A stretch of 64,000 nt of DNA, from assembly GCA_938036655.1 (NCBI GenBank), contig CALHQS010000038.1:1024-65023 (forward strand), read 5' to 3'. Shown here one piece after another: positions 11,719-38,227 of the stretch. The first letter of the stretch is position 1. Every line of letters starts with the position of its first letter. The DNA comes from an uncultured Candidatus Altimarinota bacterium. Lineage in GTDB: Bacteria > Patescibacteriota > Gracilibacteria > BD1-5 > UBA2023. A program made the position numbers and the translations under genes. Below the pieces are notes generated by a model. It worked only from the letters and a program-made list of their open reading frames with translations. It did no database searches and was not told the DNA's origin.

Positions 11719-11886
11719 TTTCGTCTTTATGGCGACTTGGTAGTCTCTCCTGACCAGAGAGATCACAAAAAATCGTATAATGATACTTCAGTATTATTAT
11801 ACATGATAACTTCTGACCAAAGTTATCAAAACTTTCCTGCAAAATCATTTGATTTTTGCATTTTATTTTCTAACCATACTATTGTT

Positions 11887-14802
11887 ATGGCTAACTTCTC
11901 TACGAAGCTTGCTTCTACAGTAAGTGCTGCGGCTATCGTTGCATCAGCAATGGGTGCTTCACTCGTTTCTGCTGCTTCTGAGTTCCTTCCTTACGCTGAA
12001 GCTCTCGCTGCTAAGAAAGTAATCAACTCTCAGAATGCTGAGTCTGGTTACCGTCTTAACGATCAGATTACTCGTGCAGAACTTGCAAAAGTTGCTGCAA
12101 ACCTTGGTGGTTACACTGCAGTAAAATGTACTGGTAAAGTATATACTGATGTAACTGCATCTCTTGGTGATCTTTGTGATGCTATCGAAACTCTTGCTGC
12201 TGCAAAAGTTATCTCTACTGCATCTAACACATTCCGTCCTACTGCCAACGTTACTCGTGCAGAAATGACAAAAATGATTCTTGGTGCTCTCGCTGTAGCT
12301 CCTTCTACTAAAAACGCAGGTTTCTCTGACGTTAACTCATCTCTTGGTGATCTTGAAGGATTTATTAATGCAGCTGCTGAACAGAGCATTGTTAACAAGG
12401 CTACTTACTTCCGTCCTAATGCTACTGGTTCTCGTGGTGAAGTATTCAAGATTGCTGCTCGTGCTGCTAAACTTGAAGTGAAAACTGACAACAAACCAGA
12501 AGTTAAGGCTGGTAATGTAACAGTATCTCTCGTAGGTTCTGCTGCTGCTCAATACACTCCTCGGAACGCATCTTCTGTTAAGGTAGGCACTATCAAAGTA
12601 ACTGCTACAGGTGGTGATGTAACTCTTAATACTCTTACTGTTTCTCGTTCAGGTCTTGGACAGGTAGCTGGACTTAAGGCTTCTCTTGCTCAGAACGGTG
12701 TAGTAGTTGGTAATGCTCGTACATTTAACAACACAACTCAGGAAGCAGTAGTTCGTCTTAATACTCCAGTAGTATTGAAGAACGGTTCTTCTGTAGAATT
12801 TGATGTTCTTGCATCTCTTCCTAATGACGGAACTTCTAACTCTCAGCACCAGTTTGCAGTAAACGCTGCTAACGGTACTGCTATGTCTCCTGTAACTCTT
12901 GGTCTTCTTAATACTACTTCATACGCAGTATCAGACGTAGTAGTTTCTAATCTTAAGGCTGAATCAGTTCGTTCTGGTCTTGCTGGTACTCGTATTGCTA
13001 ATGTTGATATTCAGGCTCCAGCTGGACGTGATGTAACTGTACACGGAATCACTATCTCTAAAAATACAGGTAACGACCTTTCTCAGGCTATTACAAATGT
13101 AAAAGTATTCCGCAATGGTGTAGATACAGGTGCTAAGGCTACTGTAACTTCTGACAAGATTGTTATTACTGGTCTTAATACAAAACTAGAAGCAGGTAAC
13201 ACTGCTAAGTACGAACTTCGTGCTGATACTATCTATGTTGGTGAAACAGCTACTTATAATCTTCACATTGCTAATACAGAAGATATTTCTGCTACAGAAA
13301 ACTCTACTGGATATGTAACTCGTGTGAAAGGTACTGGAGTTAATGATGCACTCCCTGCTGCTGTTACACTTACAGTAAGCGGAATTAAAGTAACTACTGC
13401 TTTGAATAACAACTCTCTTAAGAATGTTGCTCCTGGAACATCTGGAGTTGACTTCCTTGATGGAAAAATCACTTCTTCTGCTTCTTTCGAAGTTCGTGGA
13501 TTTGAACTTACTGCAACTCCAAATACAATTGATAACTTGAAAAAAGTATTCTCATCTCTTACTCTTGATGTAGCTGGTTCTAACTATGACCTTCTTACTC
13601 AGACAATGGATAATGGTAAATTTAAATTTGGAAACTCAGATTCATTTGTAATGGATGCTGGTACTCCTGCAAACATCCGTGTTCGTGGTACAGTAAAACA
13701 GGACGCTGATAAGGCAAATATTGACGCTGTTAAATTCTCTTTGAAACTTACATCTCTTAAGAACCTTGACAACGGAAATACATTTACGCCTTCATCAGAC
13801 ATTGTTCTTACAGGTAACAATGTAAAAATCAAGGCTTCTACTCTTGATGTTCGTACTGCTACTGTAGCAGCTCCTTCTTCTCGTCATATTGCTGCTAATA
13901 TGAACGGTGTTGAAATCGGTCGTTTTGCTCTTGAGGCTAAAAATGCTGATATTCGTGTTGCGAAGATTACTGTTAACAATACGGGTAATCTTGCAGATCT
14001 TAAAAAACTTGCTGATGATGCTTCTTCATTCCGTCTTGTAGATCTTTCTACTGGTCAGGAAGTTGATACAAGCAAAGAATTTAAGAATGCTACAACGCTT
14101 GAATTTACAATTTCTCCAGCTCTTACTGTAAATAAAGACACTATCAAGAACTTTAAACTTACTGTTGATACAAAGGCTCTTGATACAGATGCTATGGCTA
14201 AGACATTTATCGGTAACTTCACAGTAGCTGCTGACGATCTTTCTACTGATAATGGTACTGCTGCTCTTGCTACTGCTACTGCTACAGGTGAAACTTACAA
14301 AACAGCTATTTCTATGCCTACTCTTAAGGTAAACCCTGTATCTCTCGTTGCTAACGGTCCTGTTGCTACAGTAACTGTGAAGAATGAAGATTCAGATAAT
14401 TATATTAAGGTTGAAAAAATGAAAATCCGTGTACAGGCTCGTTACACAGGAAATAATAATGTAAACTTTGATAATTCAAAAGTGTGTCTCCGTAACCGTG
14501 GTGCTACTGTAGCATGTTCTGATACTACTTCAGTAGTTCCGTCTACAGCTGGTGCGGTAAACGGTGCTTCTCTTGAATTTACATTCTCTAGCAACATTGA
14601 TGCTGGTAAAGTAATCTCTACAAATAGCGCGACAGACTTCGAAGTATACCTTCAGGATGCTCCACTATGGGTAGCGGGTGATCACGTTGCGGTATCTATT
14701 GAGTCAGCTGATTATAAGTATGGAGAAACTAGTACTCCAAATACAGATATCAAAGACACTTACGTAGGTCTTGCTGATGCTACTGCTACTTCTACAAAGT
14801 AA
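11887..14802 (+). CDS. S-layer protein with an N-terminal signal peptide and three SLH-like repeats
   Basis: It starts MANFSTKLASTVSAAAIVASAMGASLVSAASE. It has three repeats of the SLH type (YRLNDQITRAELAKVAANL, FRPTANVTRAEMTKMILGAL, FRPNATGSRGEVFKIAARAA). These are followed by about 750 aa of T/V/A/N/G-rich beta-type sequence. The gene has a strongly biased codon set (gct/act/ggt/ctt/cgt) and no TGA. The track start at 11737 is an upstream read-through artefact. Confidence 0.75.
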   Translation: MANFSTKLASTVSAAAIVASAMGASLVSAASEFLPYAEALAAKKVINSQNAESGYRLNDQITRAELAKVAANLGGYTAVKCTGKVYTDVTASLGDLCDAIETLAAAKVISTASNTFRPTANVTRAEMTKMILGALAVAPSTKNAGFSDVNSSLGDLEGFINAAAEQSIVNKATYFRPNATGSRGEVFKIAARAAKLEVKTDNKPEVKAGNVTVSLVGSAAAQYTPRNASSVKVGTIKVTATGGDVTLNTLTVSRSGLGQVAGLKASLAQNGVVVGNARTFNNTTQEAVVRLNTPVVLKNGSSVEFDVLASLPNDGTSNSQHQFAVNAANGTAMSPVTLGLLNTTSYAVSDVVVSNLKAESVRSGLAGTRIANVDIQAPAGRDVTVHGITISKNTGNDLSQAITNVKVFRNGVDTGAKATVTSDKIVITGLNTKLEAGNTAKYELRADTIYVGETATYNLHIANTEDISATENSTGYVTRVKGTGVNDALPAAVTLTVSGIKVTTALNNNSLKNVAPGTSGVDFLDGKITSSASFEVRGFELTATPNTIDNLKKVFSSLTLDVAGSNYDLLTQTMDNGKFKFGNSDSFVMDAGTPANIRVRGTVKQDADKANIDAVKFSLKLTSLKNLDNGNTFTPSSDIVLTGNNVKIKASTLDVRTATVAAPSSRHIAANMNGVEIGRFALEAKNADIRVAKITVNNTGNLADLKKLADDASSFRLVDLSTGQEVDTSKEFKNATTLEFTISPALTVNKDTIKNFKLTVDTKALDTDAMAKTFIGNFTVAADDLSTDNGTAALATATATGETYKTAISMPTLKVNPVSLVANGPVATVTVKNEDSDNYIKVEKMKIRVQARYTGNNNVNFDNSKVCLRNRGATVACSDTTSVVPSTAGAVNGASLEFTFSSNIDAGKVISTNSATDFEVYLQDAPLWVAGDHVAVSIESADYKYGETSTPNTDIKDTYVGLADATATSTK

Positions 14803-19798: not shown

Positions 19799-19874
19799 GC
19801 CACCTTAGCTCAGTTGGTAGAGCATCGGTTTTGTAAACCGGCGGTCATCAGTTCAAGTCTGATAGGTGGCTCCA
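19799..19874 (+). tRNA. tRNA-Thr (anticodon UGU), CCA encoded
   Basis: Acceptor GCCACCT/AGGTGGC, anticodon stem TCGGT/ACCGG with loop TTTGTAA, T loop TTCAAGT. Confidence 0.9.
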
Positions 19875-19966
19875 CTTATTTGGGTTTTAGAAGTTTGGAA
19901 TATTAGATTGAAAAATCTTAAATCTAAAATTCGAAAAGTCTAAAACTTTTTTCTTTTCATTTTCCT

Positions 19967-20051
19967 GGGTCGGTTCCAGAGCGGTCAAATGGGGAGGACT
20001 GTAAATCCTTTGGCTTCGCCTTCGGGGGTTCGAATCCCTCCCGGCCCACCA
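19967..20051 (+). tRNA. tRNA-Tyr (anticodon GUA), long variable arm, CCA encoded
   Basis: It aligns by eye to bacterial tRNA-Tyr: GGGTCGG..CCAGAGCGGTCAAAT..loop CTGTAAA..variable arm TTGGCTTCGCCTTC..GGGGGTTCGAATCCCTC. Confidence 0.9.
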
Positions 20052-20064
20052 CTTTTACATCTAT

Positions 20065-20141
20065 GGGTGATTAGCTCAGTTGGCGAGAGCATCTGCCTTA
20101 CAAGCAGGGGGTCGGGGGTTCGAATCCCTCATCACCCACCA
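20065..20141 (+). tRNA. tRNA-Val (anticodon UAC), CCA encoded
   Basis: Acceptor GGGTGAT/ATCACCC, anticodon stem TCTGC/GCAGG with loop CTTACAA. Confidence 0.9.
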
Positions 20142-20145
20142 TATT

Positions 20146-20170
20146 GGTAACCTTTTGGGTTATTTTTTGT
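20146..20170 (+). terminator. terminator after tRNA-Val
   Basis: TAACC-TTTTG-GGTTA followed by TTTTTTGTTT. Confidence 0.55.
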
Positions 20171-20189
20171 TTAAAGGCATCAAAAAAAT

Positions 20190-20217
20190 TTGCTTTTGAT
20201 GAAAAAATTTATATAAT
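20190..20217 (+). promoter_or_regulatory. promoter TTGCTT-16-TATAAT of the tRNA Arg-Leu operon
   Basis: Read directly. It lies about 27 nt upstream of tRNA-Arg. Confidence 0.55.
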
Positions 20218-20244
20218 CGGCTCGGTTTTGAATTTTCAAAATTT

Positions 20245-20320
20245 GCACCCATAGCTCAATTGGAAGAGTATCGGTCTTCGAAACCGGCGGTTGTAGGTTC
20301 GAACCCTACTGGGTGCACCA
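20245..20320 (+). tRNA. tRNA-Arg (anticodon UCG), CCA encoded
   Basis: Acceptor GCACCCA/TGGGTGC, anticodon stem TCGGT/ACCGG with loop CTTCGAA (positions 34-36 = TCG). Confidence 0.85.
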
Positions 20321-20329
20321 CAGATATTT

Positions 20330-20413
20330 GCTCGGGTGGTGGAATGGTAGACACGTACGCTTGAGGTGCGTATGCCTAACGGTGTGGGGGTTCAAGTCCC
20401 CCCTCGAGCACCA
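20330..20413 (+). tRNA. tRNA-Leu (anticodon GAG), long variable arm, CCA encoded
   Basis: It aligns by eye to bacterial tRNA-Leu: GCTCGGGTGGTGGAATGGTAGACAC, anticodon stem TACGC/GCGTA with loop TTGAGGT, and T arm GGGGGTTCAAGTCCCCC. Confidence 0.85.
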
Positions 20414-20910: not shown

Positions 20911-22218
20911 ATGTTAGCAAATGTGAAAAAAATCTGGGGAACAGCGCATATTCGAAAAAGTATAATTGTGACGCTTCTCTTGATTTTGGTCTACAAACTT
21001 TTGGCTTCAATTCCAGTGCCAGGAGTGAATACAGCACTGCTTGATCTGTATATTCAACAATTCCAATCGAATCAGCAACTTGCATTTTTTGGTGCGTTGA
21101 TGGGTGGTGGTTTGGAACAATATTCTATTATTTTGATGGGACTTGCGCCATATATCAACGCAACAATCGTCATTCAATTGCTTGGTGTTGTGATTCCATC
21201 GCTCGAATCTCTCAAAAAAGAAGGTGAACAAGGACAGAAAAAACTCAATAACTACGGACGATATTTGACAGTTCCACTCGCATTTGCGCAGAGTTATGGT
21301 ATGATTTTGCTTCTAAATACACTTTTCAATATTCAGATTATTGATACTTCCAACTTTATGGGAGCAGTGTTGCCAGCGATGATTACTATTACGGCTGGAA
21401 CAATGATTCTTCTTTGGCTTGGTGACTTGATTACAGAGAGTGGTATTGGTAATGGTACCTCGATCGTAATCTTTGCCGGTATCCTTGCGAATGTACCACA
21501 ATATTTTGTAAATTATATTTCCCAAGGGCTCTATATTCCACTAATTTCGCTCGTAGCACTGACAATTTTGGTGATTTATATTATTGTACGATTTACAGAA
21601 GGACATCGTCGCATTCCTCTCGTATATACTCGTACTGGTCGAGATGAGCGTTCATATTTCCCAATTCGTATCAACCAGGCAGGTATGGTACCTATCATCT
21701 TCGCAGCATCTTTGGTAACTTTCCCTTCTATTATTGGACAAGTTTTGGTACAGCGCGCTGGTGGTCAGGCTCGTGAAATTGGTGAATTTTTGGTAAGTCA
21801 TTTCAGTATGAATAACCCAAGTTGGTGGTTCATCGGAGTATATTTCCTTCTGATTATTGGGTTTTCATATTTTTATGTAGCGATTACATTCAACACAGAC
21901 GATGTTGCAGAAAATATTCAAAAACGCGGTGGATATATTCCAGGAATTCGACCAGGAAAAGAAACTTCTGAATATTTGACAAAAGTTTCTAATCGTCTTA
22001 ATCTTTTTGGTGGTGTATTCTTGGCGATTATTGCGGTTTTCCCGTATATTGTAACGAATCTCAATAATCAGTTTGGATTTTTCCCAGCACCGAATGGTGG
22101 TATGATTGACCTCGTGATTCCGGGGGCGAGCCTGATTATTGCGGTAGCGGTAATTCTCGAAATTATTCGTCGCATTGATACGGATCTCAAAAGTTTCAAT
22201 TATCGAAAATTTTATTAA
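20911..22218 (+). CDS. secY: preprotein translocase subunit SecY
   Basis: 435 aa with 10 TM helices. Typical motifs are PVPGVN and LGLAPYINATIVIQLL. There is no TGA. It is not attached to the ribosomal protein operon. Confidence 0.95.
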   Translation: MLANVKKIWGTAHIRKSIIVTLLLILVYKLLASIPVPGVNTALLDLYIQQFQSNQQLAFFGALMGGGLEQYSIILMGLAPYINATIVIQLLGVVIPSLESLKKEGEQGQKKLNNYGRYLTVPLAFAQSYGMILLLNTLFNIQIIDTSNFMGAVLPAMITITAGTMILLWLGDLITESGIGNGTSIVIFAGILANVPQYFVNYISQGLYIPLISLVALTILVIYIIVRFTEGHRRIPLVYTRTGRDERSYFPIRINQAGMVPIIFAASLVTFPSIIGQVLVQRAGGQAREIGEFLVSHFSMNNPSWWFIGVYFLLIIGFSYFYVAITFNTDDVAENIQKRGGYIPGIRPGKETSEYLTKVSNRLNLFGGVFLAIIAVFPYIVTNLNNQFGFFPAPNGGMIDLVIPGASLIIAVAVILEIIRRIDTDLKSFNYRKFY

Positions 22219-22248: not shown

Positions 22249-22314
22249 GAAAATTTTTCTGAAAATAAAATTCTTGACAAAAATGAAAAAACTCGAAAAA
22301 TAGAGATAAAATTT

Positions 22315-22343
22315 TTGCAAATTTGTAAATAATATGCTAAAAT
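22315..22343 (+). promoter_or_regulatory. promoter TTGCAA-17-TAAAAT of the giant ORFan operon
   Basis: Read directly. It lies 25 nt upstream of ATG 22369. Confidence 0.5.
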
Positions 22344-22368
22344 AACAAGGAATTTAATTTTTTTATAT

Positions 22369-24867
22369 ATGACAAGTTCTTATCAAATCAATTCTTTGCG
22401 CGATTTTTTTGAAAAAGGTGAAGAAATAACGAAAAAACCTTTGAGTGATTCGGTGATTACAGAATATGAAACACTGGTAAAATCGGCTGAAAATTTTATT
22501 AAAAACCTCGAAATAAATAGTCCAGAGCGACCTCAGGCAGAAAAAGCGCTTCAAACATTGCGTGAAAGTTTTGTAAAATTACAAGAAACAAGCAATGCTA
22601 ATAAACAAAAAATTCAGGAAGAACTTCGTACTGAGTGGGAAACATTGAGAAACTCTGTTGTTGAGATTACACCAACTCATTCATCTCAAAATGAGTGAAC
22701 ATCACAAGAAGAGGATTCTCAGGAAAAAAATTCTGAATCTCAAGAAGAATCTCAAGTAAAGCCTGCTGAATATAAACGAGAACCAATCACTGCAAAAGTA
22801 CAAGAAGAATTGAATGAATTCCAAAAGGAGGCATTCGAGGCTTTTAAAAAACAAACACTCGGTGAAAATGGAAAAATGGATGAACTTTCTTTCCGTCGCG
22901 GAATTGAATTTTTGTCGGAACTTTCTACTTTTTCAAACATTGAAGTGGAAAAAGGAAAATTTGACTGGTTGGACACAAAAGAAAAAGAAATGCTTCTCAA
23001 ACAAATGCCCGCTGTTCAGGGAATTATCGGTTCTATTTTTGTAGAACAATTTTTCCGTGCTGGATATGAATTTGGTTTCAATGCTGATAATACTGTGATT
23101 GTAAAACCAAAAAATGCTGGTCAACAAACAAAAGCTCGTGAACTAGAAACGCAGCTGAATAATCAAATTGCTCGCAATCCTCATTTTGCAAATTCGATTA
23201 AAGCCGGTCTTCTCTATAACAATCAAGATTTGCTCACATACTTGCGAATGAATGCTACTTCTGACGGAAAAGAAATTTCTGAAGATGCACAGAAACCAGA
23301 AAATTTTATAAAATTTTTGCAAGGGCGTAATACTGAGTCTGCCAAGGCTATTTTGGCGAGCCGAAATTTTTTCAAAGATTTGGATTGGGAAGGACATTTG
23401 CATGCTGCCAGTTATGTTCCAAGTTTTTCGAAAAAATTATCTGTGATAATGGATGATCCTGAAACTCAGCAGGCGATTGCTCGGAATTTTACTCAGAATC
23501 AGAGTGCTCCGAATCGTGCAACAGTGCTCTTTAATACAATGACTGCCCCAGATGATTCTCTCAATAAACCGCTGCCAACTTTGAAAGAAAATATTGATAA
23601 ACATGGATATGCTGGAGGAATGCTCACACATACAGGAATGCTTTGGGGTCGCGGATTTAAAACTTTATTTTCTTCGCCAGAAGCAGGAACTTTGACTATT
23701 GCGGCAATGATTATTTTACCATTTGTTGTTGGATTCAAAAATGCAATGGGAATTTTTGCGGGAACACCGTTGGCACTTGGGCTCATTGATAGTTTTACTA
23801 ACGATAAAAAGCCAGAGGAAGGATCACCAGAAGAAGAAAATGATCCGCCAACCACTTCTGCTGATCAAATGGGTATCAAGGATCTTGTTCCTGAGGAACG
23901 CAGAGCCCTCATTGAATCCACTTACCCAAAAGAAGAAGTTGAGCCAATGATTAAGGCTACGGCGGCTCTTCAGACTGAAAAAGTGGGATATCTTCGCGAT
24001 TATATCGGAGGAAATGCTGATGCAAAAATTTCTGATAATGCGAAGCAATCCCTTGAAACTGAAAATAATAAAGAATTAGCAAAAAAACATATTGAAACAC
24101 TTCGGAATAAGGAAATTGAGCTTGCAAAACAATCTGGTCAGTTGACTGAAGAAGGATTAAAAGTATATACACAACTACTTGACGATATGCGACTTTCGCA
24201 GCTGGAATGGTATTCTGTTAGTTCTATTGAAGAAAGAACCAAAACAATCAATGCATATATGCAGAAAAAAAGTGAACCAAATACCTCGAAAAATTCAGAT
24301 AGCTCAAATGATGCAAAAAAACAACAAAGCTCTTGATTGTCAGCATGGGAATATGGATTTTATGGTGCCATGACACTTATCGCAGTAAAGTTGATGGGCG
24401 GGGGACCACTCTTGAAAGGAGCATGGTGAGTAACGAAATGGGTTGTGGTAAAAGGAGGTTATGGTAAAGTCTTAAAACCAGCCGGTAAAGCAATTTTTGA
24501 TAAAGGAAAAACAGCTTTAGATAAGGTGACAGGGGGACGTAAACATATTATCACTTTGAAGACTGGAGAACAGGTAACACTTTCGCGTGCAGCATATCAG
24601 GACCATCAGGATCTAAAAAAAATGCTTCAAGGGGGGAAGATAGATGCTAATGATATACCAGAAATTAATAAAAAAATGGAAAATGTATTTAAAGAAGCTC
24701 TTCAAGACGCAAATTTTAAAAAGAAAGTTCTTGCAGAATACGGAACTTCTACTTTGGATGAGGCAAAATTTTTGGATGATATGAAGTATCAAACTTCAGC
24801 GAGAGGTCTAATGAAATCTCATAATATGTCAATGAGAAAGAGGATTCTTGAAATCCTACTTCACTAA
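22369..24867 (+). CDS. giant hypothetical membrane-associated protein A (832 aa, table 25)
   Basis: Track ORFs 22369-22698, 22810-24336 and 24445-24867 share one frame and are joined by 3 TGAs with no TAA or TAG between them. It has a coiled-coil N-terminus and hydrophobic segments (GTLTIAAMIILPFVVGF...GTPLALGLI; YGFYGAMTLIAVKLMGGG). A Gly/Lys-rich stretch and a C-terminal module of about 110 aa follow. I recognise no family. Confidence 0.7.
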
Positions 24868-24876
24868 TTATTATTT

Positions 24877-27051
24877 ATGTTTAAAAAACCAATAACATCT
24901 CGTGAATCTGATTCTAATAATACTTGGCAAGAATTACAAGATACTATTGGAGAAATTCGATATGAATGACTGGAAAGTACGGATTTTAGAAACTTTACTC
25001 GAGAAGAATCTATTCAAGAATTGAAGTCAATTATTTGGGAATTTTTTGAGATGACGAGTATTTTTAGACAAAACCCTGAAAAGTGAAAAAAAATTGCAGA
25101 AGATTTTTTCAACTATATTTTACAATTTCCATGATTTGATATTGATCAGATTCAATCAATTGGAATTAATCAGGCTCGAATGAAAATCGACCTGAAAGAT
25201 TCTACACAAATTGTGATTGACCTCGCGAATGCTTGGGATGAAATTGTAGTGACGCCAGAAAAACAAAAAATCCAGACTGATACTCGTGAACAAACACAAA
25301 AACTCAGAGAAACGGTAGATAAAGATTCATTTTTTGGTGGAAATATTATTTTTGAATATGGTGCAATAGGTGTTACGACCGGGCTCGCAACGAAAAAAAT
25401 TATTGATATCAGGAAAACAAATCAGGCAGCCAAAGAGTGATTATTTCAGTTGAATTCTTTGCTTGTGAAAATGGATGATGGAAAAACTATGCGCATTCAT
25501 TTGAGTGATGAACGGCCAATTATTGGAACCCACAAGGATTTTCAAGATTCAGTTGGTCGTATATTGGAGCGCGCCGAATTACAACTTGACCCTACAACTC
25601 GAAAAGTATTTTTCCCTGCAAAAAAAATGCTTCAAGCACTTGATGAAGACTTTTGAAATCTTACATATGAAAAGTACTTGAAAGAGAATGAAAATATTCA
25701 AGAAAAAATGACTCGTGAAGAATTTGAAAAATTTCGTCAGGAAAAAATCATCGAAAATCGTCAGATGATTCGTGATTTTGATGCAGGGAAAATTACATCT
25801 ACAAAAATCTTAAAATCTGTCGGTCATATTGCGATGCACGCAGCAATGCTCCCACTTTTTGCTGTACAGTATCACCGCCATCAAACAGCTGCCAATATGG
25901 TTGAGGCTGTTGGGGAAGAGGTGGCATTTGCTATCGGTGCCAAAGTAGTAGGAAAAGCTGCATCAAAGGCTCCTGGTGTATGGAAAGCTCCAGCAGTGAT
26001 TGTGGGAAGTCTTGCTGGAGGTATTGGTGCTGTGTGGGCTGGGCATACATTTTCTGAAAAAATGCTTGATGCAAAGCGTCATAAATGGCTCACATTTCAA
26101 AAATCAAATTATGAAAATAAACGCTCAAGACTTGGACATATTGTATTTGGGATGGGCGTAAATGAAGGACTTGGGTATCTCAATGATGGACTCAGATATA
26201 TTACAGAAGATTCAGAAATGGGTGGCTTGGATATAGGAATTGACAGAATGTCATTTAATAACCCGTTTACTGGAAAACATCTCTTTACCACTCCAGAGAT
26301 GTCTATTTTTCAAGATAAGGTCACCCTTGGTACTGAGCCTTGGACTTGGATGCAAACCGCAGCGAATCGCGATGTGAATCGTTGGAACGAGTATGTAGAA
26401 CGCTACAAAACACTTCTAAAAACTAATATTAATATTCTATTGGGTGAATATAATCGTGGCGAAGGAATTTTCTCGGATACGGACAAAATAAAAGAAAAGG
26501 GTAGCAAAGAAAAATTACTTGAATCAGAACTCTATGAAGTACTCAGAGGTGGCGAATCTGGTATATCTTTTGTGCGAGAAATGGCCACGCTGGTGAATGT
26601 GATTTTACAAGAAGTAAAAAACTGAACATCAGCCGGTAGTCGAGGAATTAATGATTACATTGACTTTACTGTGAATCAAATGAAAATTGATAGAGGATTA
26701 TATTTGTATCATCGAAAAATATCGCTCAATGAGGAATATGTGAGACTTATATCTTCTACTGAACGTTTCTCGAATCTGACACCAGAACTTACAGAATATA
26801 TCAAAAAAATCCCAGAACGAATTTATTTGCAGCAGGAAATTTACCAAAATAATACCGAAAAAAACATGTATGAATCTATGCTGAAAAATAAAAATACAAT
26901 AGAACGAACTGATGAAAATAGAAAAAAAATACAAGTAACTGTGGGAAATGAATTTGCGATTTGGCTTGACGAGATTGTCGCTTGGAATCAAGAAAAATAT
27001 TTTCTTGAGCAAATAGAGGCTGGCAATACGAAAGGTTTTGAATGGAAATAA
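24877..27051 (+). CDS. giant hypothetical protein B (724 aa, table 25)
   Basis: Five pieces in one frame (24877-25179 plus track ORFs 25180, 25450, 25678 and 26671) are joined by 6 TGAs. It starts 9 nt after A. It has a central hydrophobic, Gly/Ala-rich region (AFAIGAKVVGKAASKAPGVWKAPAVIVGSLAGGIGAVWAG). I recognise no family. Confidence 0.7.
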
Positions 27052-27067
27052 TTTTTAAAAATTTTTT

Positions 27068-27958
27068 ATGACAAATATTGAAAAAAAAGTGGAATTTAAA
27101 GATATTCCACAAAGCGTAAAAAACGCACTTCCTGACTCAAATGAATACCAAAAATTTGAAGCAGCTCGTAATAAACTCCAATCGCAGACTGATATTTTGC
27201 AAAAAAATACAGAAGATCGTCTGACTGCTCTCAAAAATGAATTGCCACCAGATATCCGAGCTAAAGTCGAAAATCTTTCCGATTTGGCTGATGCTGTTGA
27301 GGACAAAAACCTGTTTGAGCAAGCGAGGGATAAATACAATGAAGTCAAAGGTGATATAGCTGCTCTTCCTGGAAAAGCTCTAGACTCAGCGGAGGCTGTT
27401 TATGATCAAATTATTGGTTCGGATGTTACGATCAAGACTGATAAAGATTCATTTGCTGGACTCAAAACCGCTTTTGATACTTTCAAAGAAAAAGGTTTTA
27501 TCGAAGGAATGAAAGAAATCGGAAGTCAGCTCAAAGATTTTTTTGATAAAATTATTTCGATTTTTAAAGGTGGATTTGGTTGGGCGACTTTTGAAAAAAT
27601 TGGAGATTTATTTTCTGGAACAATTGATACTGGGAAAAAAATTTCTGATGTTATCAAGTGGGCGAAAGATACAATTGGTTTGTCATTTTCAGAGGGCGCA
27701 CCTTGGCGAGATGCGCTGGAAGACCGAAAACTGCTCGCGCTTCCGATTGAAAAAATTCGTGCTGGCATGTCGGTAGAAAATATTTCAAAAGAATTGGGAA
27801 TCAAACTTTCGAATAGCGATGCAAAAACATTTTTGGACAAATTTTTTAAGCCAGAAAATTTTGAAAAAATTATTGCTGAATATAAAACTAAAACCAATAC
27901 TTCCACAGTTGACGAAAAAATCGTGACGCTCAAAGATTTGGTTCTCAATCTCGGATAA
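27068..27958 (+). CDS. hypothetical protein C (296 aa)
   Basis: Intact ORF 16 nt after B. It is helical and charged, and I recognise no family. Confidence 0.6.
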   Translation: MTNIEKKVEFKDIPQSVKNALPDSNEYQKFEAARNKLQSQTDILQKNTEDRLTALKNELPPDIRAKVENLSDLADAVEDKNLFEQARDKYNEVKGDIAALPGKALDSAEAVYDQIIGSDVTIKTDKDSFAGLKTAFDTFKEKGFIEGMKEIGSQLKDFFDKIISIFKGGFGWATFEKIGDLFSGTIDTGKKISDVIKWAKDTIGLSFSEGAPWRDALEDRKLLALPIEKIRAGMSVENISKELGIKLSNSDAKTFLDKFFKPENFEKIIAEYKTKTNTSTVDEKIVTLKDLVLNLG

Positions 27959-27964
27959 AAATGA

Positions 27965-27996
27965 ATATCTCTGGAAATTTCCAGAGATATTTTTAT
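27965..27996 (+). terminator. terminator of the A-B-C operon
   Basis: Perfect 26-nt palindrome ATATCTCTGGAAA/TTTCCAGAGATAT followed by TTTTATTT. Confidence 0.75.
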
Positions 27997-28050: not shown

Positions 28051-28506
28051 ATGGCTAATTCACTCAATAAAGTACAATTGATCGGAAATCTTACGGCTGA
28101 TCCGGAAGTTCGCGAAACTCCAAATGGACAAAAAGTTGCGACTTTTTCTGTAGCGACGAATCGTCGTTGGAAAGATGCGTCTGGAATGACTCAGGAACAA
28201 GTGGAATATCACAGCGTAACAGCTTGGCGTTGGCTTGCGGATATCGCGGAACAATACATGAATAAAGGAAAAAAAGTGTATGTGGAAGGATATTTGCAGA
28301 CTCGTAGTTGGGATGATGCAACGACTGGTCAGAAGCGCTACAAGACAGAGATCGTTGCTGATAATATTATCCTTCTTTCATCGTCGGGTGGAGCTTCTGC
28401 TGGTGGTGATATGGGTGGATTCTCAGCTGCGGCTGGAGATGATCAACCTACTCGCGCCAAAGCAAAAGTGGAAGAAGATATTTCTATCGAAGACATTCCA
28501 TTTTAA
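28051..28506 (+). CDS. ssb: single-stranded DNA-binding protein
   Basis: It has an OB fold (LNKVQLIGNLTADPEVRETPNGQKVATFSVATNRRW...), a Gly-rich linker and an acidic tail ending DIPF. Confidence 0.95.
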   Translation: MANSLNKVQLIGNLTADPEVRETPNGQKVATFSVATNRRWKDASGMTQEQVEYHSVTAWRWLADIAEQYMNKGKKVYVEGYLQTRSWDDATTGQKRYKTEIVADNIILLSSSGGASAGGDMGGFSAAAGDDQPTRAKAKVEEDISIEDIPF

Positions 28507-28523
28507 AATATATATTTCAAAAT

Positions 28524-28547
28524 AAAAAATCCCAATTGGGATTTTTT
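28524..28547. terminator. bidirectional terminator between ssb and gene D
   Basis: AAAAAATCCCAATTGGGATTTTTT. The TAA stop of D (28546-28548) abuts it. Confidence 0.75.
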
Positions 28548-31140
28548 ATTGATTTGGAGTTGCTGGCTCTCCAGCTGTCTGTGTAGATAAGTTTCCTGGT
28601 GTGAGTGTTTCTATGCCTGGGTTATCAGAATTTTTTGGTACTCAAGCAGAATTTCATTCTGATACAAACTCTTTTCCAACTACTATCGAGCCTTCATCTC
28701 ATGATTGACCTTCGTTTTGTTCTGTATCGCTTGTTGATTGTTTGATTGTTTCTAAATAGTGTTTAAAAGCAGTTGTTGTATTTGGTCCAAGCATACCATC
28801 TTGTCATTTTGCTGTATCTGAAGATTTAATACCAATGAGTTCTTGTAAATTTTTGACTGCAAGGGGTGTCGGGTTGTGGATAGCGGTTTGGATAATATTT
28901 TTTACTTCTTGATCAATATAGTCTGCATATTGACCCTGAATATTATTCCATTCCGTTACTACTTGCTTCCATTGAGTTGTCTGAATCCATCGCTTAGAAA
29001 TAGATTCTCGGTAATCAGTAGTTGCTATTTTTCCATTGATTTTTCGTGTTAAATCAAGATTGACGGTAGGAGTTTCTGAGAATTGAGTGCTTCATTCATT
29101 CGGTGCTTGACCATCTCATTCTTTTGATGTTTGAGGAATTTTTGGATTAGGTTTTTGCTCGACTGACTGAAAAACTTCCTTTTCCCAATTTGGGTCAATG
29201 GTGGAGATATCGAATTTTTCATTAATTCGTGTTATAAGAGTTGTTATGGCTGCAGCAGGAAGCGCAGATTGTTTCAATGTAGTTCGTAGTGCACCAACCG
29301 TTTCAGTAATCTTTGAATTCACCGTGTTAAGCTCTTTTTCGAGATTTGCAATATTTTCTTTGATTTCAGGTGATTTTTTTGATTGACGAAGTGCTTTTCT
29401 TTCTTCTTGAAGTGCTTTGAGGATTTCTACTTTTTCCTCACGAAGAACCTTGAGTTCATTTGATTTTTTTGCAGAGTTTTGTCTCCATTTATCCCATGTT
29501 TCTCGGATTTTACCTGGATTCTGCGCTTCCGCTTTTGGCGCTTCCGCTTTTGGCGCTTCCGCTCCTTTCGTATTAGAGTTAGCCTTCTCTAATCTTTCTT
29601 CGAGTTTTGTTTTATTTTCCGAAAGGTTTTTATTTTTAGTATCCAGTTGATCCATCTTTTTTGTAAGTTGCTCATTTTGTCGCTCAAGTTTTTTAAGATT
29701 TTGTTCTAGTTGTGCCTTTTCACTTTCAAGGTATTTTAAATTTTCATTTGCTTCTGGCTTCACTCTAGATTGTTCTAATGCCATCTGTTCTTCCTTTAAC
29801 TTACTGATTCTTTCTTGACGAATCTTTTCAACAGTAGCATTTTTCTTTGGAACTTCACTTTCTAATTGTTTAAGCTGCTGTGAAATTTCTTCATGCTTGT
29901 GATAATTAATTTTTTTATTAATATTTTCAAGATTACCACTTCCTTCACTTATACGATTAAAGTTGGAAATTCTTTCAGCTTCAAGTGCTTTTTTAGCATT
30001 ATTATTTTGTGTAATGTAATCATCAATATTGTTAATACTTTCTTTGGTATTCACAACTCGTTTTTTGGTATAGTGTTCCTGAACATTATTTTTTATCTTT
30101 CATGCAGTATTTCGAACTCGGTTAATACTATTAGAGGCGGTATTAGTTACTGCCTCTTTTACTTTTCCTGTACCCTGTGTGATTTTTTCACCAACTGCAT
30201 TTTTCAAATTATTTCCAGTTTCACTAACTTTTTTAAGATTAGACTGAACAGCTTTTCCAACGGTACTATCACCGATTACTGAACCCACTTTTCGTGTGAC
30301 AGGATTATTTACTACCGGATTTACTATTTTTTTTGCAATATTAGTAGGAGCGTTAACTGACCCTACAATAGCTTTTCCACTTCATTCTACTATTTTGCCA
30401 GCTCACTGTAGTGCTTTTCCGCCGACTCTTCCAGCCATTGATGTGCTTTCTGCACTTATTTGTGCTCACTTCTTTACCGCGAGGCCACCACCCTTTATTA
30501 GAATTTTCCCGAAGGTTTTTGCAATACCAGCGATACCAGTGATTGCCAAGATGATATCAACACTGGCTCGCCCTTGTTCATAAGGATTTCCTTCAGTCAA
30601 ATCTTTCAATGTCTGTGCGAGTTGATTTTTTACTTGTTCCCAGCTCAGATTCTTAAGCGCTTCAAATACCTGGCTTCGGAAATTTGAATTTGAAATGGCA
30701 AGCTCTACAAACTCTGGCATTGCCAAAATAGAATCCAATCCACCCATAAAAAATGCTATACCAGGATGACTTTTTGAAGGATTATCTTTATCAAAATCTA
30801 CCGCCCAATGAACCGCCCTTCGTAGCGAGTCTATAATAAGTGAGTCGGTCTGCACTCTTACTTGTTCAATAATGTCTTGCTTCTTTATGCTTACTATTAC
30901 AATAAGATCAGAGAGTGTTTGTTTGGTCTTGAGGATATTTTGTAACATTTCCTTGTATATATCCATTGCATTGTCGTTCATCTTTTTGCTTAGAATATCA
31001 CGAGAGATTTCTCGTAGATGATTGTCAACAATAGATTGAAATGCTCATATTTCTCCGTCATTATATCATTCATCTTTCATGGTTTGTGATACCATTTGAT
31101 TGATTTCTTGTTGCTTTGCACTGAGTACTGATTTTTCCAT
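28546..31140 (-). CDS. giant hypothetical protein D (864 aa, table 25) with a Gly-rich repeat region, a long coiled coil, an AEAPK repeat and a C-terminal peptidoglycan-binding-like motif
   Basis: Manual translation from ATG 31140 to TAA 28546 is open when TGA is a sense codon (12 TGAs by my count). It joins track ORFs 30466-30981, 30100-30288 and 29116-30054. A hydrophobic segment (VDIILAITGIAGIAKTFGKIL) is followed by GKxxxG-type repeats. About 250 aa of heptad-like K/E/L/N-rich sequence comes next. The C-terminal DGMLGPNTTTAFKHYLE resembles the PG_binding_1 D-G-x-x-G-x-x-T motif. Confidence 0.7.
29523..29563. repeat. 15-bp tandem repeat x2.7 (GCGCTTCCGCTTTTG) encoding (AEAPK)n inside gene D
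   Basis: Read directly from the sequence. Confidence 0.9.
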
Positions 31141-33034: not shown

Positions 33035-34186
33035 ATGCAAATTTCTTCTTCTTTTGCTCTGAAAAATTCAACTCATAAACGGGTTTCTCTGCTTTTGGAT
33101 CGAGATTTCGAGACATTTCAACGCACAAAAACCCAAAGTTCTTTTTCCCGATTTTATTCTTCAATTTGGCGTTTTTTTGCGAATCTTTTTCAAAAAAAGC
33201 CGATTTTTTATTTCCTTCTTTTTTGTGGTGCATTTTTCGCAGTTTCTGTAGATGCGGCGATGGCGGCTGAAACAAAAACATTTATCGCGACAGCGTATTA
33301 TTCACCAACGCCTGATCAGGCGAAATACTACACTGGAACATATGCGGGCGATTTGTCGCTCAATGGTGGTAATTCAAAAGCCTCAGATGGCACACCAGTA
33401 TATGTTGGAATGGTTGCCGCTCCACGAAATTATGCTTTTGGAACAAAAATCAACCTTGATGGAATTGGTGTAGTGAGTGTCCATGATCGCGGTGGTGCGA
33501 TTGGCTCTGGTGACGGATACGATCGTATTGATATTTGGATGGGATATGGTGATGAGGGGCTGGCTCGCACGCTTGCGTGGGGTCGTCGCGAAATCACTGG
33601 AACGATTGTAGATAATGGAACTTCCGTTTCTTTGGATCTTGAAAATATCCTCACAAATGCTCCAAAAGCTGGTGATTTGGCTCTCAAAAAATTGCAAGCG
33701 ATTGGCTATAACACGACTGGGCGTACATTTTCTGATGTAATTCTCCAATTTCAGCTTGATTATGGTGTGATCAATTCTCGCACGGATGCTGGTGCTGGAA
33801 ATTATGGTCCAAAAACAACCGCAAAACTCAGTGAAGTGTACAACAATTTTCTCAAAAATGGGAGCGTTCAGGCTCCAAAAGTAGAATCTGTTGTAGAAAA
33901 TGTATTGCCTTCAGCGCGTGATAATTCGGAAATCAAAAATTCTCTGGAAGCAGAAAAATTGAGCGAAAATATGAGTACCAATTTTTTCGGAGTGACGGAT
34001 GAAAAAGTACAAAATCTCCAAAATTTCCTCAGACAATCAGGATATTCCACGGATAACAATTCTGGAAAAATGGATCTTTCAACCCTCCACGCGCTTCGAA
34101 AATATCAGTCTGCCAAAAATATCTGACAAACTGGCCGCGTCGACCTTCGTACGCGACTTACGATCGCAAACGATCTTTCAAAATAA
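33035..34186 (+). CDS. secreted/anchored cell-wall protein with a 3D (MltA-like barrel) domain and two peptidoglycan-binding repeats, table 25; start uncertain
   Basis: A TM/signal segment (IFYFLLFCGAFFAVSVDAAMA) is followed by the 3D-domain pattern TATAYYSPTPDQ...GTYAGD...DGTPVYVGMVAAPRNYAFGTKI...VHDRGGAI...RIDIWMG. It also has two PG_binding-like repeats (NYGPKTTAKL; LHALRKYQSAKNI-G-QTGRVD). The TGA at 34124 is read through to TAA 34184-34186. Confidence 0.75.
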
Positions 34187-35336: not shown

Positions 35337-36281
35337 ATGAATCTTTATGATCCACTTCTAGAAGCTGAAAAATCCGTTCTAGAAACTCCAAAAACACAAA
35401 CAAAAATCAAAATTTCTCGCGCGAAAATTCTTTTCACAACACGACCAAAAAGCTTTGTTCGTCAGCTTTTTTCGAGTGCAAAATTTTTTGTAACTTATAT
35501 TGCGCTTTCAACGACGATTTTTTCGGTTATGATGGGTGCGATGAATTTTAACGCGTACAGCGCGCGTGTGGCTCATTGGTTCAATCCTGATGCGTACGCT
35601 CATGCAAGCGAACAAATGCACGGAATTCTCAATACTTCTCACGCAGAAATTGCGGGTGCGAAACAAACGGAAGAAGATATTGAACAGCGTGCGATTATCG
35701 AAGAAAAAATTGCGGCACAAAATCCAGAAATGGTGTATTCTCGAAAATATGCTTCAGAAAATTTGCTTTCCAATGTGCCTTTACAATCAGCAGAAAAGGC
35801 ATCATTTTCGGTAGCACCACAGGAAAATCGCGTTGTGATTCCTCGTCTTGCGAAAAATATTCCGCTTATTGATGTGTATCATGACAAAAATACGCCATTT
35901 GAAGAAATGCACGAAATTTTCAAACAGGAACTCGTGAAAGGAATTGTGCGCTATCCAGGAACGGCTCGTCCAGGAGAAAAAGGAAATGCCTTTATTTTTG
36001 GGCATTCTTCCAATGTTCCTTGGATCAAAAGTGATTACAATGATGTTTTTGCGTTGCTCGATACGCTCGAAAACGGTGACGAAATTATTGTATATTATAA
36101 TCAGAAAAAATTTGTCTACAAAGTGACTGATCGTACAACCGTAAAACCTGGCGACACAGAAGTTTTGAACGCGCGTGATCCAAATAAAAAAGAAATTTCT
36201 CTCATGACTTGTTGGCCAATTGGAACAACACTGGAACGACTTATTATTTTTGGAGAATTGGTCGAAGAATCTGCTTCATAA
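35337..36281 (+). CDS. sortase family transpeptidase with an N-terminal TM anchor
   Basis: Catalytic His (AFIFGHSS), Cys (ISLMTCWP, TLxTC-like) and Arg (TLERLIIFG) are in canonical order. Confidence 0.8.
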   Translation: MNLYDPLLEAEKSVLETPKTQTKIKISRAKILFTTRPKSFVRQLFSSAKFFVTYIALSTTIFSVMMGAMNFNAYSARVAHWFNPDAYAHASEQMHGILNTSHAEIAGAKQTEEDIEQRAIIEEKIAAQNPEMVYSRKYASENLLSNVPLQSAEKASFSVAPQENRVVIPRLAKNIPLIDVYHDKNTPFEEMHEIFKQELVKGIVRYPGTARPGEKGNAFIFGHSSNVPWIKSDYNDVFALLDTLENGDEIIVYYNQKKFVYKVTDRTTVKPGDTEVLNARDPNKKEISLMTCWPIGTTLERLIIFGELVEESAS

Positions 36282-36629: not shown

Positions 36630-37193
36630 ATGAAAACAGCTCTACAAGCAAAAGTTGGGACAGTTCTCAAAATTGATGGAGATATTTTTCTCGTGATAAA
36701 GCACGAAATGCGTCGTGGTGGACGCGGTGCAACTAACGTTACAATGCGCCTTAAAAATCTTATCCAGAATACAACTTCTGACCGCGTAATGGATGGTGAA
36801 GAAAAATTGGATGATGTAATTCTTGAACGCTCAAAGGCAGAATTTTTGTACCAGTCTGGTGATGAATTTGCTTTTATGAATCAGGATACATATGAAACAG
36901 TAGAACTTCACGCGGACGATATTGGTGACGCGGCAAATTATTTGAAAGAAGGTTTGATCGTTGATCTCCAGACTTTTGAAGGAAAATTTGTTGGTATTAT
37001 TCTTCCAATTCGCGTAACACTTCAGATTACTGAATGTGAGCCAACAGTTGCTGGAAACACAGCCGACGGAAAGGTAGAAAAGTGGGCAACTCTTGAAACT
37101 GGTCTTCAAGTGAAAGTTCCAGGATTTGTAAACCAGGACGACTTCATCATCGTTTCAACAGAAGATGGTTCATACCTTGAACGCGCAAAATAA
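36630..37193 (+). CDS. efp: elongation factor P (Arg at the loop-tip position)
   Basis: 187 aa, colinear with EF-P (GDIFLVIKHEMRRGGRGATNVTMRLKNL...; C-terminal LETGLQVKVPGFV). The PGKG loop is replaced by GGRG. Confidence 0.9.
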   Translation: MKTALQAKVGTVLKIDGDIFLVIKHEMRRGGRGATNVTMRLKNLIQNTTSDRVMDGEEKLDDVILERSKAEFLYQSGDEFAFMNQDTYETVELHADDIGDAANYLKEGLIVDLQTFEGKFVGIILPIRVTLQITECEPTVAGNTADGKVEKWATLETGLQVKVPGFVNQDDFIIVSTEDGSYLERAK

Positions 37194-37203
37194 TTTGACA
37201 AAT

Positions 37204-37228
37204 AAAAATCCCAAACGGGATTTTTTTG
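37204..37228. terminator. bidirectional terminator between efp and the T4SS-like operon
   Basis: AAAAATCCCAAACGGGATTTTTTT. Confidence 0.75.
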
Positions 37229-37239
37229 ATGCGATTTTT

Positions 37240-38223
37240 TTATCGTTTGTTAGCGTCTTGTGCGTTGTATGCTTTGAGATATGTCTGCGTTGATGCGTTC
37301 ATATAAGTGGAAAGATTATTCCTGAGGTGAATGTAATCGTCATAAATAATCGCGAGCAATAGATGTGCTGGATACGCTTTTTCCATATCCATAAAAGTTC
37401 GAATGGCACGAGGAAGGGTCGAATCGGCACGACGAATTTCTGTTTCAAGTGCGGTTGCATAATTATTGTATGATTTGATCCAAGCTTCAGAATCACGAGC
37501 GATATTTGTTCCACTTCCGGTTCCGATGGCTTGTTCTACGCTTTCTACATACGCACGATCAGATTCGAGAGTTGTGTCAAGATATGACAGATAATATCGA
37601 TAGTGACAATATTGCCGTGTCGCAGAATTGACGATTTCTTGCATTACAGCCGTTTGATTAGCATCAGAATTATTGCACTGCAAATTATCTTTTTCGCGCT
37701 CCAATCGTGTTTGTTCTTTATTGAGTTGTGTCGTGATTTCAGAATTGGCTCCATTGAGCGTGCTTTCAACGGTTTCACGAAGCCCCTTCAGAATGCGCAA
37801 ACGAGAAGTGACAATCGCACACGAAAACAATGAATTCATCGTACTACGGTACTGCAATCGCGCTACTTCGAGCGTTTTAAATCCAGAAAAATCTCCAATT
37901 CGACTCATATCAAGTTCGCTTGCGAGTCGATTTTTTTCTTCTGTAGAAAGATTGGAAAGATTCTGTGTACGCGAAATCTGATGATTCACGGCGCTGGCTT
38001 TGAGCTCAGGATATTGAGGAACTGGGCGAATCGCATTATTTTTTCCCCAATATCGATCTGTACTATCACAATAGGATTTTGCGCCATCAAGATACGACTG
38101 ATAGCTTTTAAAATCAGGATTTTGTTCGCTCGGAATAATTTCGGCGTGCGCTGGGTTTTGCGTGAAAAAAATTCCAAAAATCATTCCAAGCGCCATCATC
38201 GATGTTCAAATATTTTTTTTCAT
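37240..38223 (-). CDS. secreted hypothetical protein (327 aa, table 25), last gene of the T4SS-like operon
   Basis: ATG 38223 lies 4 nt after the upstream stop. It has the signal peptide MKKNI-G-TSMMALGMIFGIFFTQNPAHA/EII, is Cys-containing and helical, and matches no family I recognise. Confidence 0.65.
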
Positions 38224-38227
38224 AAAT

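Follow-up and report, generated by a model that had tools for sequence, protein, structure and literature searches.

Mosaic variable segments that extend across adjacent genes are a feature of specificity-group and self-recognition loci such as staphylococcal agrB-D-C and idsD/idsE of Proteus mirabilis. The pneumococcal proteins PspA and PspC are mosaic, recombining Gram-positive surface proteins with proline-rich stalks, and the chlamydial Inc proteins, which belong with a type III secretion system (T3SS), carry a bilobed hydrophobic hairpin of about 40-60 amino acids (aa) between coiled-coil flanks. In a marine Gracilibacterium, Sieber et al. 2019 (PMC6851277) described a hypervariable PTD-repeat gene, predicted to encode a surface protein and interpreted as host-related, in which synonymous variation lies within the 9-mer repeat array of a single gene under stabilising selection. 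The locus considered here consists of three adjacent genes, A, B and C, and a fourth, D, within a 64,000-nucleotide stretch of DNA from an uncultured Candidatus Altimarinota bacterium (contig CALHQS010000038.1; this whole stretch is hereafter the window, and all positions refer to it). Judged by sequence and, for B only, by predicted fold, it belongs neither to the specificity-group loci nor to the mosaic Gram-positive surface proteins, nor to the polymorphic toxin loci discussed below. Genes A-B-C, probably with D, form a conserved, lineage-restricted module for which no relative was detectable in any family or structure library searched, and the module carries the population-genetic signature of interaction with an external partner, namely trans-lineage allele classes, mosaic recombination and a ratio of nonsynonymous to synonymous substitution (dN/dS) above 1.

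Sequence identity places the window in a human oral Gracilibacterium close to GN02-873. Exact copies of C occur on human oral metagenome contigs, one such contig (L001) shows 6 mismatches to the window in 20,891 bases, and the homologues of C are all 79-100% identical, their named sources being oral 'Candidatus Gracilibacteria' such as GN02-873. The GenBank record of that organism, translated with table 25, already contains homologues of A (RAL55377.1, 1018 aa) and B (RAL55378.1, 723 aa), both as hypothetical proteins. In the window, A (22369-24867, 832 aa), B (24877-27051, 724 aa) and C (27068-27958, 296 aa) are co-oriented on the plus strand with spacings of 9 nucleotides (nt) between A and B and 16 nt between B and C. 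The gene order continues with ssb (28051-28506, plus strand), D (28546-31140, minus strand, 864 aa) and rpsA, and secY (20911-22218, plus strand) forms the conserved upstream flank, outside the system.

Comparison of the window with GN02-873 (contig L009) reveals an uneven divergence. Amino acid identity is 99% for SecY (with a synonymous distance, dS, of 0.15), 96% for the single-stranded DNA-binding protein (SSB), 94% for C and 94% for residues 1-365 of A, against 22% for the rest of A, 47% for B (dS of about 1.8) and 23% for D. At the nucleotide level, blastn similarity of the window to L009 and to a second contig, L014, ends at 23459 and resumes at 26763, from where it runs through C and ssb to 28563; relative to strains of the second allele type described below, similarity is absent over the whole of D and resumes at 31150. 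Two hypervariable segments are delimited in this way, with the conserved ssb between them: HV1 (23460-26762, plus strand), which comprises the C-terminal half of A and B as far as about codon 629, and HV2, which is D itself. The N-terminal part of A (22369-23459, plus strand, aa 1 to about 364) is 88-100% identical across all alleles and under purifying selection; at about aa 365 identity drops from at least 92% to 15-28%. The allele dimorphism, the recombination and the fourth gene D go beyond what had been noticed in an earlier reading of the window (the sequence-only reading), which was confined to A, B and C.

Allele typing of 46 oral contigs at five segments (the A hairpin region, the A mid region, the A C-terminal module, B and D) resolved two deep allele classes, types I and II, for each variable segment, with between-class identities of 21% for the A C-terminus, 47% for B and 22% for D. 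The window is type I at all variable segments. The classes mostly travel together, with exceptions: three recombinants (L012, L043 and L048) combine a type I A hairpin region with type II B and D, the left HV1 breakpoint in L012 lying at 23832, and in a fourth (L040) type I B is joined to type II D. An apparent recombinant of the opposite kind (L044, type II B with type I D) was discarded because it rests on a 45-aa match. Class membership does not follow the flanking genes. The secY genes of type I strain L030 and type II strain L014 differ by 0.8% of nucleotides, as against 8% between two type I strains, and mean secY distances are 3.5% within and 4.2% between classes; over the N-terminal part of A, type I L024 and type II L014 are 99% identical. 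No comparable divergence is seen in C, secY or ssb, no class structure in C or secY, and the SecY protein is at least 99% identical throughout. From this incongruence and the conserved flanks it follows that the cassette alleles are maintained, and spread by homologous recombination, inside a single population or species complex.

In these respects the locus resembles agr and ids, since a variable block starts in one gene and ends in the next, the flanks are conserved, the allele classes are few and discrete, and membrane-embedded partners are presumed to co-adapt. It differs from both in having no sequence or domain relation to them and no signalling peptide, kinase or type VI secretion system context, and the interaction of A with B is putative. 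The C-terminal modules of A from the two types align end to end at 24-27% identity and are divergent versions of one domain rather than different domains. Within type I the module is 48-55% identical where B is 94-97% identical, and no matching change is seen at the N-terminus of B.

Selection differs along the locus. In pairwise Nei-Gojobori comparisons under code 25, dN/dS is 0.13-0.41 for B and 0.15-0.37 for C, values that reflect purifying selection, to which the N-terminal half of A (aa 1-505) is also subject. The distal half of A has a dN/dS above 1 and is under positive selection, at least among type II alleles. Between L014 and L019, codons 1-505 of A contain two nonsynonymous differences and no more are found through codon 800, and residues 506-1018 accumulate 45.5 nonsynonymous and 2.5 synonymous changes (synonymous fraction 0.05 vs 0.22 expected; binomial p = 7e-4). 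Distal A of L009 and L014 differs by 109 nonsynonymous vs 17 synonymous changes (p = 0.011). Among type I alleles, the second hydrophobic and Gly/Lys-rich segment of A gives dN/dS of 1.1-1.9 from small counts, and the C-terminal module gives 0.3-0.6, which reflects an older divergence. Relative to the PTD-repeat gene of the marine Gracilibacterium (PMC6851277), the variation here takes the form of whole-domain allele classes and a nonsynonymous excess spread over several genes. The changes between L014 and L019 involve all base types (among them C>T 12 and A>G 10), together with indels and changes in the number of TPKPNAE-like repeats. A diversity-generating retroelement was ruled out as their source, as the substitutions are not adenine-specific; no reverse transcriptase was present among the called and Pfam-annotated genes of the loci, a survey that did not include a search for template repeats.

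In type II alleles, A carries at aa ~800-905 (7200-7600 of L009, and likewise in L019 and L014) a variable number of repeats rich in Pro, Thr, Lys and Glu (TPKPNAE, TTTEKKPD), located between the membrane-proximal part and the terminal module and absent from the type I allele of the window. Oral contigs that cover the whole of A carry it intact, at 832-1018 aa, and repeat number explains most of this length range. As with PspA and PspC, a single species harbours deep allele families, with mosaic alleles, Pro/Thr/Lys-rich repeat linkers of varying number and diversifying selection. Unlike these proteins, A-D carry no signal peptide, LPXTG motif or choline-binding anchor, anchoring would have to use internal hydrophobic hairpins, and the module comprises several genes.

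Taken with the anatomy of the proteins given below, these patterns lead us to favour, tentatively and at a little short of an even chance, a reading in which A, B and C, probably with D, form a membrane-anchored complex of UGA=Gly lineages within the candidate phyla radiation (CPR), the Gracilibacteria and their relatives, with an exchangeable specificity cassette that faces an external partner. C would form the constant machinery together with the conserved N-terminus of A (365 aa) and the conserved core of B; the cassette would consist of the distal half of A, with its membrane hairpin, helical stalk and small terminal module, most of B, and D. The oral GN02-873-like population keeps at least two ancient cassette classes, homologous recombination shuffles the cassette between otherwise near-identical genomes, and the distal part of A is under positive selection. 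The role most likely served is strain-specific contact with the surface of a host or prey bacterium, with a phage for which the complex is the receptor, or with sibling cells. The data show that the genes are real, which genetic code they use, how the operon is built, that known relatives are lacking, and that synteny, dimorphism, recombination and a dN/dS above 1 exist; we infer the membrane topology, that the four proteins associate, that they are exposed at the surface, and which partner they meet.

Allelic dimorphism, mosaic recombination and dN/dS above 1 indirectly favour the host attachment or attack proposed in the sequence-only reading, and fit a phage receptor or kin recognition equally well. 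The narrower proposal that the module is an undescribed envelope apparatus for host recognition or attachment, in which the cassette sets host or partner-strain specificity and the classes correspond to different partners, is doubtful. Oral Gracilibacteria (GN02) are uncultivated, and to our knowledge nothing is known of how they find or hold a host cell; if the host-recognition reading is true, the locus would offer a first genetic handle on host range in these uncultivated Gracilibacteria. Since the allele classes are easily typed in metagenomes, their co-occurrence with candidate host taxa or phages can be tested at once, and when cultures become available the A-D proteins would lend themselves to labelling or pull-down.

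Much of the same evidence bears on a polymorphic toxin-like antagonism, in which A would be a delivered effector with a conserved N-terminal region for trafficking and a variable C-terminal part that is toxic or inserts into membranes, B (with or without C) its cognate protector or helper, and the classes compatibility groups of competing strains. Polymorphic toxin loci (CdiA-CT/CdiI of contact-dependent inhibition, Rhs, and the LXG proteins of type VII secretion systems) share with this locus a conserved N-terminus (here 365 aa) followed abruptly by a variable, sharply bounded C-terminus, a next gene downstream that co-varies, recombining alleles and positive selection at the tip. Gly-zipper-like hydrophobic segments in all four proteins, a basic C-terminal tail on the A-like proteins of all lineages, and genes for a type IV secretion system (T4SS) coupling protein and T4SS pilin 7-10 kb away would also suit such a system. 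However, the variable ends of A are mutually homologous versions of one module rather than unrelated toxin folds, and no toxin or immunity family was detected in Pfam, NCBIfam or the Protein Data Bank (PDB). B, with its 724 aa, constant length, phylum-wide conservation and synteny across distant lineages, is unlike a small strain-specific immunity protein, and within type I the tip of A varies while B hardly changes. Moreover, no orphan cassettes follow the operon, and no secretion-system genes lie in or adjoin it or occur near B in the distant loci. Antagonism of this kind is therefore quite unlikely.

Conservation of the module beyond the oral clade was revealed by a HMMER search of 1.84 billion cluster representatives with the TGA-free residues 261-582 of B. 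The B family comprises 30 clusters at E < 1e-3, with 27-40% identity to B; about eleven are full-length proteins of 704-880 aa that are collinear with B, and six diverse members align end to end. Family members, of which B is the founding one, share a length of about 700-880 aa, full-length collinearity and the motif PE..(F/I)Q.K..LGT.P..WM ... R....WN..V..Y. The contigs of the distant homologues contain abundant in-frame TGA, and every distant B locus examined has an adjoining A-like gene, a C-like gene or both, so that the synteny proposed as a check on the sequence-only reading is borne out. Contig L052 (GC content 27.5%) contains a homologue of A (blastp E 4.5e-5, in the mid-region and with the same C-terminal arrangement), B and a homologue of C (E 1e-13), and in L034 B is followed by a C homologue (E 9e-12). 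L036 contains B, a longer C-like gene whose N-terminal part is homologous, a 1460-aa D homologue on the same strand, a DUF4010 gene and ssb. Since D is co-directional with B in L036, a local rearrangement accounts for its divergent orientation in the window.

In L035, L037 and L051 a large protein without detectable sequence similarity to A lies upstream of B, and is called A-like from gene position and from architecture as read by eye. Jackhmmer detected no A homologue in four distant loci, and outside the oral clade the sequence link is provided by L052 only. By eye, the upstream proteins of L035 and L037 have a helical N-terminus, a Gly-rich hydrophobic hairpin, a Lys/Gly-rich stretch and a coiled coil or Pro/Thr/Ala-rich linker, and that of L051, a C-terminal fragment only, has the basic tail. 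A short terminal strand-plus-helix unit can be discerned in L037, L052 and L034, and the tails end in basic residues. Scans of GTDB species representatives found the module in only two, both oral, and scans of JGI metagenome contigs found oral alleles only; both used two short peptide patterns and give a lower bound for taxonomic breadth. From the contigs in which homologues were found, the A-B-C module thus appears, as had been proposed, to be lineage-specific, restricted to UGA=Gly CPR lineages.

Searches for known relatives were uniformly negative. Nothing significant was returned for A, B, C or D by Pfam, NCBIfam, PHROGs or PADLOC, by Pfam for isolated sub-domains and alignments (the B-family alignment included), or by profile searches of PDB sequences with the B family, the D C-terminus and the A C-terminal module. 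The top PHROG matches were to tape measure proteins for C and D (E 0.03) and to a family of unknown function for B (E 8.5e-4). The B-family member P0100, modelled with AlphaFold2 (AF2) from a 24-row alignment of distant homologues, gave a mean predicted local distance difference test (pLDDT) score of 70.8 and a predicted template modelling (pTM) score of 0.62, with an N-terminal alpha/beta region, a poorly resolved hydrophobic helix pair and a large, confident C-terminal helical domain. Foldseek found no match for this model in the PDB (best E 1.3) or BFVD (best E 0.016, TM-score 0.08). The AF2 model of C, all-alpha with a pLDDT of 46, was too poor for a fold search. No description of the family, the module or the polymorphism was found in the literature searched, including studies of oral GN02 metagenome-assembled genomes (PMC7739484) and of the hypervariable Gracilibacterium gene (PMC6851277). 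The view of the sequence-only reading that these proteins match no recognised catalytic or structural family is upheld across all these libraries, and at the level of protein family and module, with the fold comparison covering B only, the system appears to be new in kind, its genes being present in GenBank as hypothetical proteins.

Homologues were likewise lacking in phages, both by tblastn in 50,697 phage records and in IMG/VR, and with no significant PHROG match a phage structural protein or an origin from a phage or mobile element was ruled out. These results also bear on a role in anti-phage defence or abortive infection, in which sensor parts would diversify under phage pressure. Defence loci typically show replacement between strains and positive selection, and the proteins here are large, have no known function and carry membrane segments. 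On the other hand, PADLOC gave no match for A, B or C and matched D only to the coiled-coil part of its LmuB/JetC models, which resembles structural maintenance of chromosomes (SMC) proteins and is non-specific; Pfam and NCBIfam revealed no domain of the nuclease, ATPase, TIR, Sir2 or a similar kind; and every strain has the locus, in a fixed place beside secY and ssb rather than variably present, without homologues in the phage or IMG/VR collections. A defence function is very unlikely on this evidence.

The anatomy of A is largely as the sequence-only reading had described it, with hydrophobic Gly/Ala-rich segments, a Gly/Lys-rich stretch and a discrete C-terminal module (~125 aa), which aligns as one unit across alleles. 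The first hydrophobic Gly/Ala-rich segment (23677-23859, plus strand, aa 437-497, Kyte-Doolittle 1.85) is probably a two-helix membrane hairpin, and its G.G.K.LF.SP.A frame is kept in both allele types. The second hydrophobic segment with its Gly/Lys-rich stretch (24337-24483, plus strand, aa 657-705, of which about 657-690 are hydrophobic) is followed by the C-terminal module (24484-24864, plus strand, aa 706-832), the most variable piece of the protein, with a beta-hairpin, helices and a basic amphipathic tail. B contains a hydrophobic Gly/Ala-rich region with Gly-zipper-like spacing (25816-26046, plus strand, aa 314-390) and, further on, the most conserved motif of its family, DIGI.R...PE..(F/I)Q.K..LGT.P..WM....R....WN..V..Y (26224-26409, plus strand, aa 450-511). 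C is 87-100% identical among full-length oral homologues; codons ~80-105 (27305-27385) form a single indel-rich variable patch, with lengths of 286-308 aa among strains, and this patch may be a contact or exposed loop.

D, the fourth large protein without known relatives, has a long coiled coil in addition to a hydrophobic Gly/Ala-rich segment and a Gly/Lys-rich stretch, and its C-terminal domain is the part best conserved between allele types. Its alleles span 864-1430 aa across strains, and type II D has tandem repeats of ~40 aa. In a search of the PDB with the D-family profile, two of three matches were to the peptidoglycan-binding domain of phiKZ endolysin gp144 and lytic transglycosylase, at a non-significant E of 1.1, and Pfam gave no PG_binding_1 (PF01471) match in the D C-terminus at E up to 1; a peptidoglycan-binding module at this end is a lead only. 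The four proteins of the window showed no paralogy with one another.

The combination of hairpin and coiled coils, the lack of a signal peptide, the restriction to one lineage and the fast evolution recall the Inc proteins, by architectural analogy only. Here there is no T3SS and no homology, the proteins are far larger, and the operon partner family B is without counterpart. The same features permit a reading of the module as a fast-evolving scaffold on the cytoplasmic face of the membrane, serving cell shape, division or membrane remodelling, in which weak constraint on coiled coils and linkers and the occasional import of alleles from related species would account for the variation. No signal peptides are apparent, hairpin-type hydrophobic segments would leave both flanks on one side of the membrane, the coiled coils are long, a Lys-rich stretch follows the hydrophobic segments, and the module is kept beside housekeeping genes in several lineages. 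The proteins also evolve very fast in general: the SSB of L036 (10419-10877) is 87% identical to that of the window whereas its B (341-2545) is only 29-33% identical, which indicates that B and D diverge far faster than housekeeping genes. Relaxed constraint, however, would bring dN/dS near 1 rather than produce a significant excess in distal A beside virtually identical first 800 codons, the occurrence of two discrete classes in backgrounds less than 1% apart at SecY points to selection rather than drift, and B is clearly under purifying selection within classes. A cytoplasmic scaffold is thus unlikely.

Several of these observations also weigh against the membrane-anchored complex with an outward-facing cassette that we favour. 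By eye, no N-terminal signal peptide is recognisable in A, B, C or D. The hydrophobic stretches of B are short and weak (Kyte-Doolittle maximum 1.5) and of low confidence in the AF2 model, where the region of P0100 equivalent to aa 314-390 has a pLDDT below 50, and B could be peripheral or cytoplasmic. By the positive-inside rule, the Lys-rich stretch after the second hydrophobic segment of A would put the terminal module on the cytoplasmic side. That A, B, C and D interact physically is deduced solely from synteny and from allele types that co-segregate almost completely. Metagenome contigs, L040 among them, may be chimeric, and many of the 46 that were typed are near-duplicates, so that allele counts are not independent and the effective sample is small. 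The pairwise dN/dS estimates are crude and were made on recombining sequence. The fold search covered the B-family model against the PDB and BFVD, and A-D could still have a remote known fold. In view of the missing signal peptides in A, B and C and the weak hydrophobic segments of B, the designation of these as envelope proteins in the sequence-only reading is a supposition. Indirect hints that the variable parts are extracytoplasmic are provided by the Pro/Thr/Lys-rich repeats of type II A, by the resemblance, below threshold, of the D C-terminal domain to a peptidoglycan-binding module, and by the presence of an S-layer protein and a sortase in the window.

A, B and C are real genes. With TAA and TAG as the sole stops (TGA read as Gly), they were recovered at exactly the places, sizes and spacings first proposed, with three in-frame TGA codons in A (codons 110, 656 and 687), six in B, none in C and 12 in D. 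At the GC content of the window (36.6%), random codons are TAA or TAG at a frequency of ~5%, and open reading frames (ORFs) of 700-800 codons therefore cannot be chance products. The long ORFs of A, B and C are intact in dozens of independent human oral contigs, and TGA-to-GGN substitutions keep the reading frame of A and B. That the sequence might be non-functional, whether decaying or an artefact of annotation, could be argued from the lack of family matches and from the pLDDT of 46 for C. This explanation is effectively refuted by ORFs of 832, 724 and 296 codons that stay open in independent contigs spanning them, frame-preserving TGA-to-GGN changes, a dN/dS far under 1 for B, for C and for the N-terminus of A, synteny in distant lineages and the pTM of 0.62 for the B-family model. 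The evidence by which the sequence-only reading was to stand or fall accordingly leaves it in place: no confident homology to a known machinery was found, homologues with synteny exist, and the ORFs are intact and, for B, C and the N-terminal half of A, under purifying selection.

The genetic code is directly shown to be one in which UGA encodes Gly (table 25). Four of the five TGA codons of the serine hydroxymethyltransferase (SHMT) gene of the window (5484-6728) align with invariant Gly residues of solved PDB SHMTs, and TGA alternates with GGA, GGT, GGG or GGC from strain to strain in many aligned columns of A and B. Table 4 (UGA as Trp) was ruled out by the SHMT alignment and the TGA/GGN alternation; distant B homologues that others had translated with table 4 show W at conserved Gly positions of the family. 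The DNA of the window is densely tiled with genes only if TGA is a sense codon, and every gene is terminated by TAA or TAG. The 64-kb window was found to contain no tRNA with anticodon UCA.

The genes had been described as UGA-rich, which is not accurate, and as invisible under table 11, which is overstated. For A, B and C the density of TGA per 1000 codons amounts to 3.6, 8.3 and 0, compared with 4.7 for the window as a whole, and it is highest of the four in D (13.9). In public metagenome annotations table 11 does break up A and B, splitting A-B-C into nine pieces of 109, 508, 140, 30, 86, 55, 315, 123 and 296 aa, but C and the 508-aa (A) and 315-aa (B) pieces remain visible. Most public metagenome annotations of these contigs use table-11 calling, which hides such genes as 8-10 fragments. 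Reading TGA as sense also generates many long spurious ORFs in the antisense or other frames, so that naive longest-ORF calling with table 25 over-predicts; examples are 37363-38247 (plus strand, within 37165-38247), opposite the gene at 37240-38199 (minus strand), and 48287-48916, which contains 8 TGA.

Downstream of C, the perfect-palindrome terminator noted earlier is present at 27963-27992 (plus strand), where a 13-bp stem on a 28-nt perfect palindrome is followed by TTATTT. Its predicted hairpin has a minimum free energy of -19.8 kcal/mol (z = -6.1; 0 of 200 shuffles fold equally well) and is a strong terminator candidate. The promoter proposed for the operon stands as a motif, TG-extended TTGCAA-17-TAAAAT at 22315-22343 (plus strand), but a closer match to the consensus, TTGACA-16-AAAAAT, lies at 22274-22301, and promoter-like matches are frequent in this AT-rich region (35 found vs 20 expected). 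Since such matches are common in AT-rich DNA, a promoter upstream of A is plausible only.

Other genes of the window lie further from the operon. A 999-aa protein with S-layer homology (SLH) domains and no TGA (11803-14802, plus strand) is a probable S-layer protein, a sortase is encoded at 35337-36281 and a PG_binding_1 protein at 33035-34186; together, these three indicate a Gram-positive-type envelope. The T4SS-like genes mentioned above encode a coupling-protein-like ATPase (38228-40657, minus strand; DUF87/HerA, TrwB_AAD_bind) and, adjoining it, a protein with three T4SS_pilin/VirB2-like repeats (40667-41671, minus strand), and their neighbours at 37243-38199 and 41684-42127 have no Pfam matches. 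Directly upstream of rpmE and secY is a cluster of five tRNA genes (19799-20413, plus strand; Thr-TGT, Tyr, Val, Arg-TCG and Leu-GAG), and the table-25 ORFs called over it, for example at 20080-20379, are artefacts of translating tRNA DNA.

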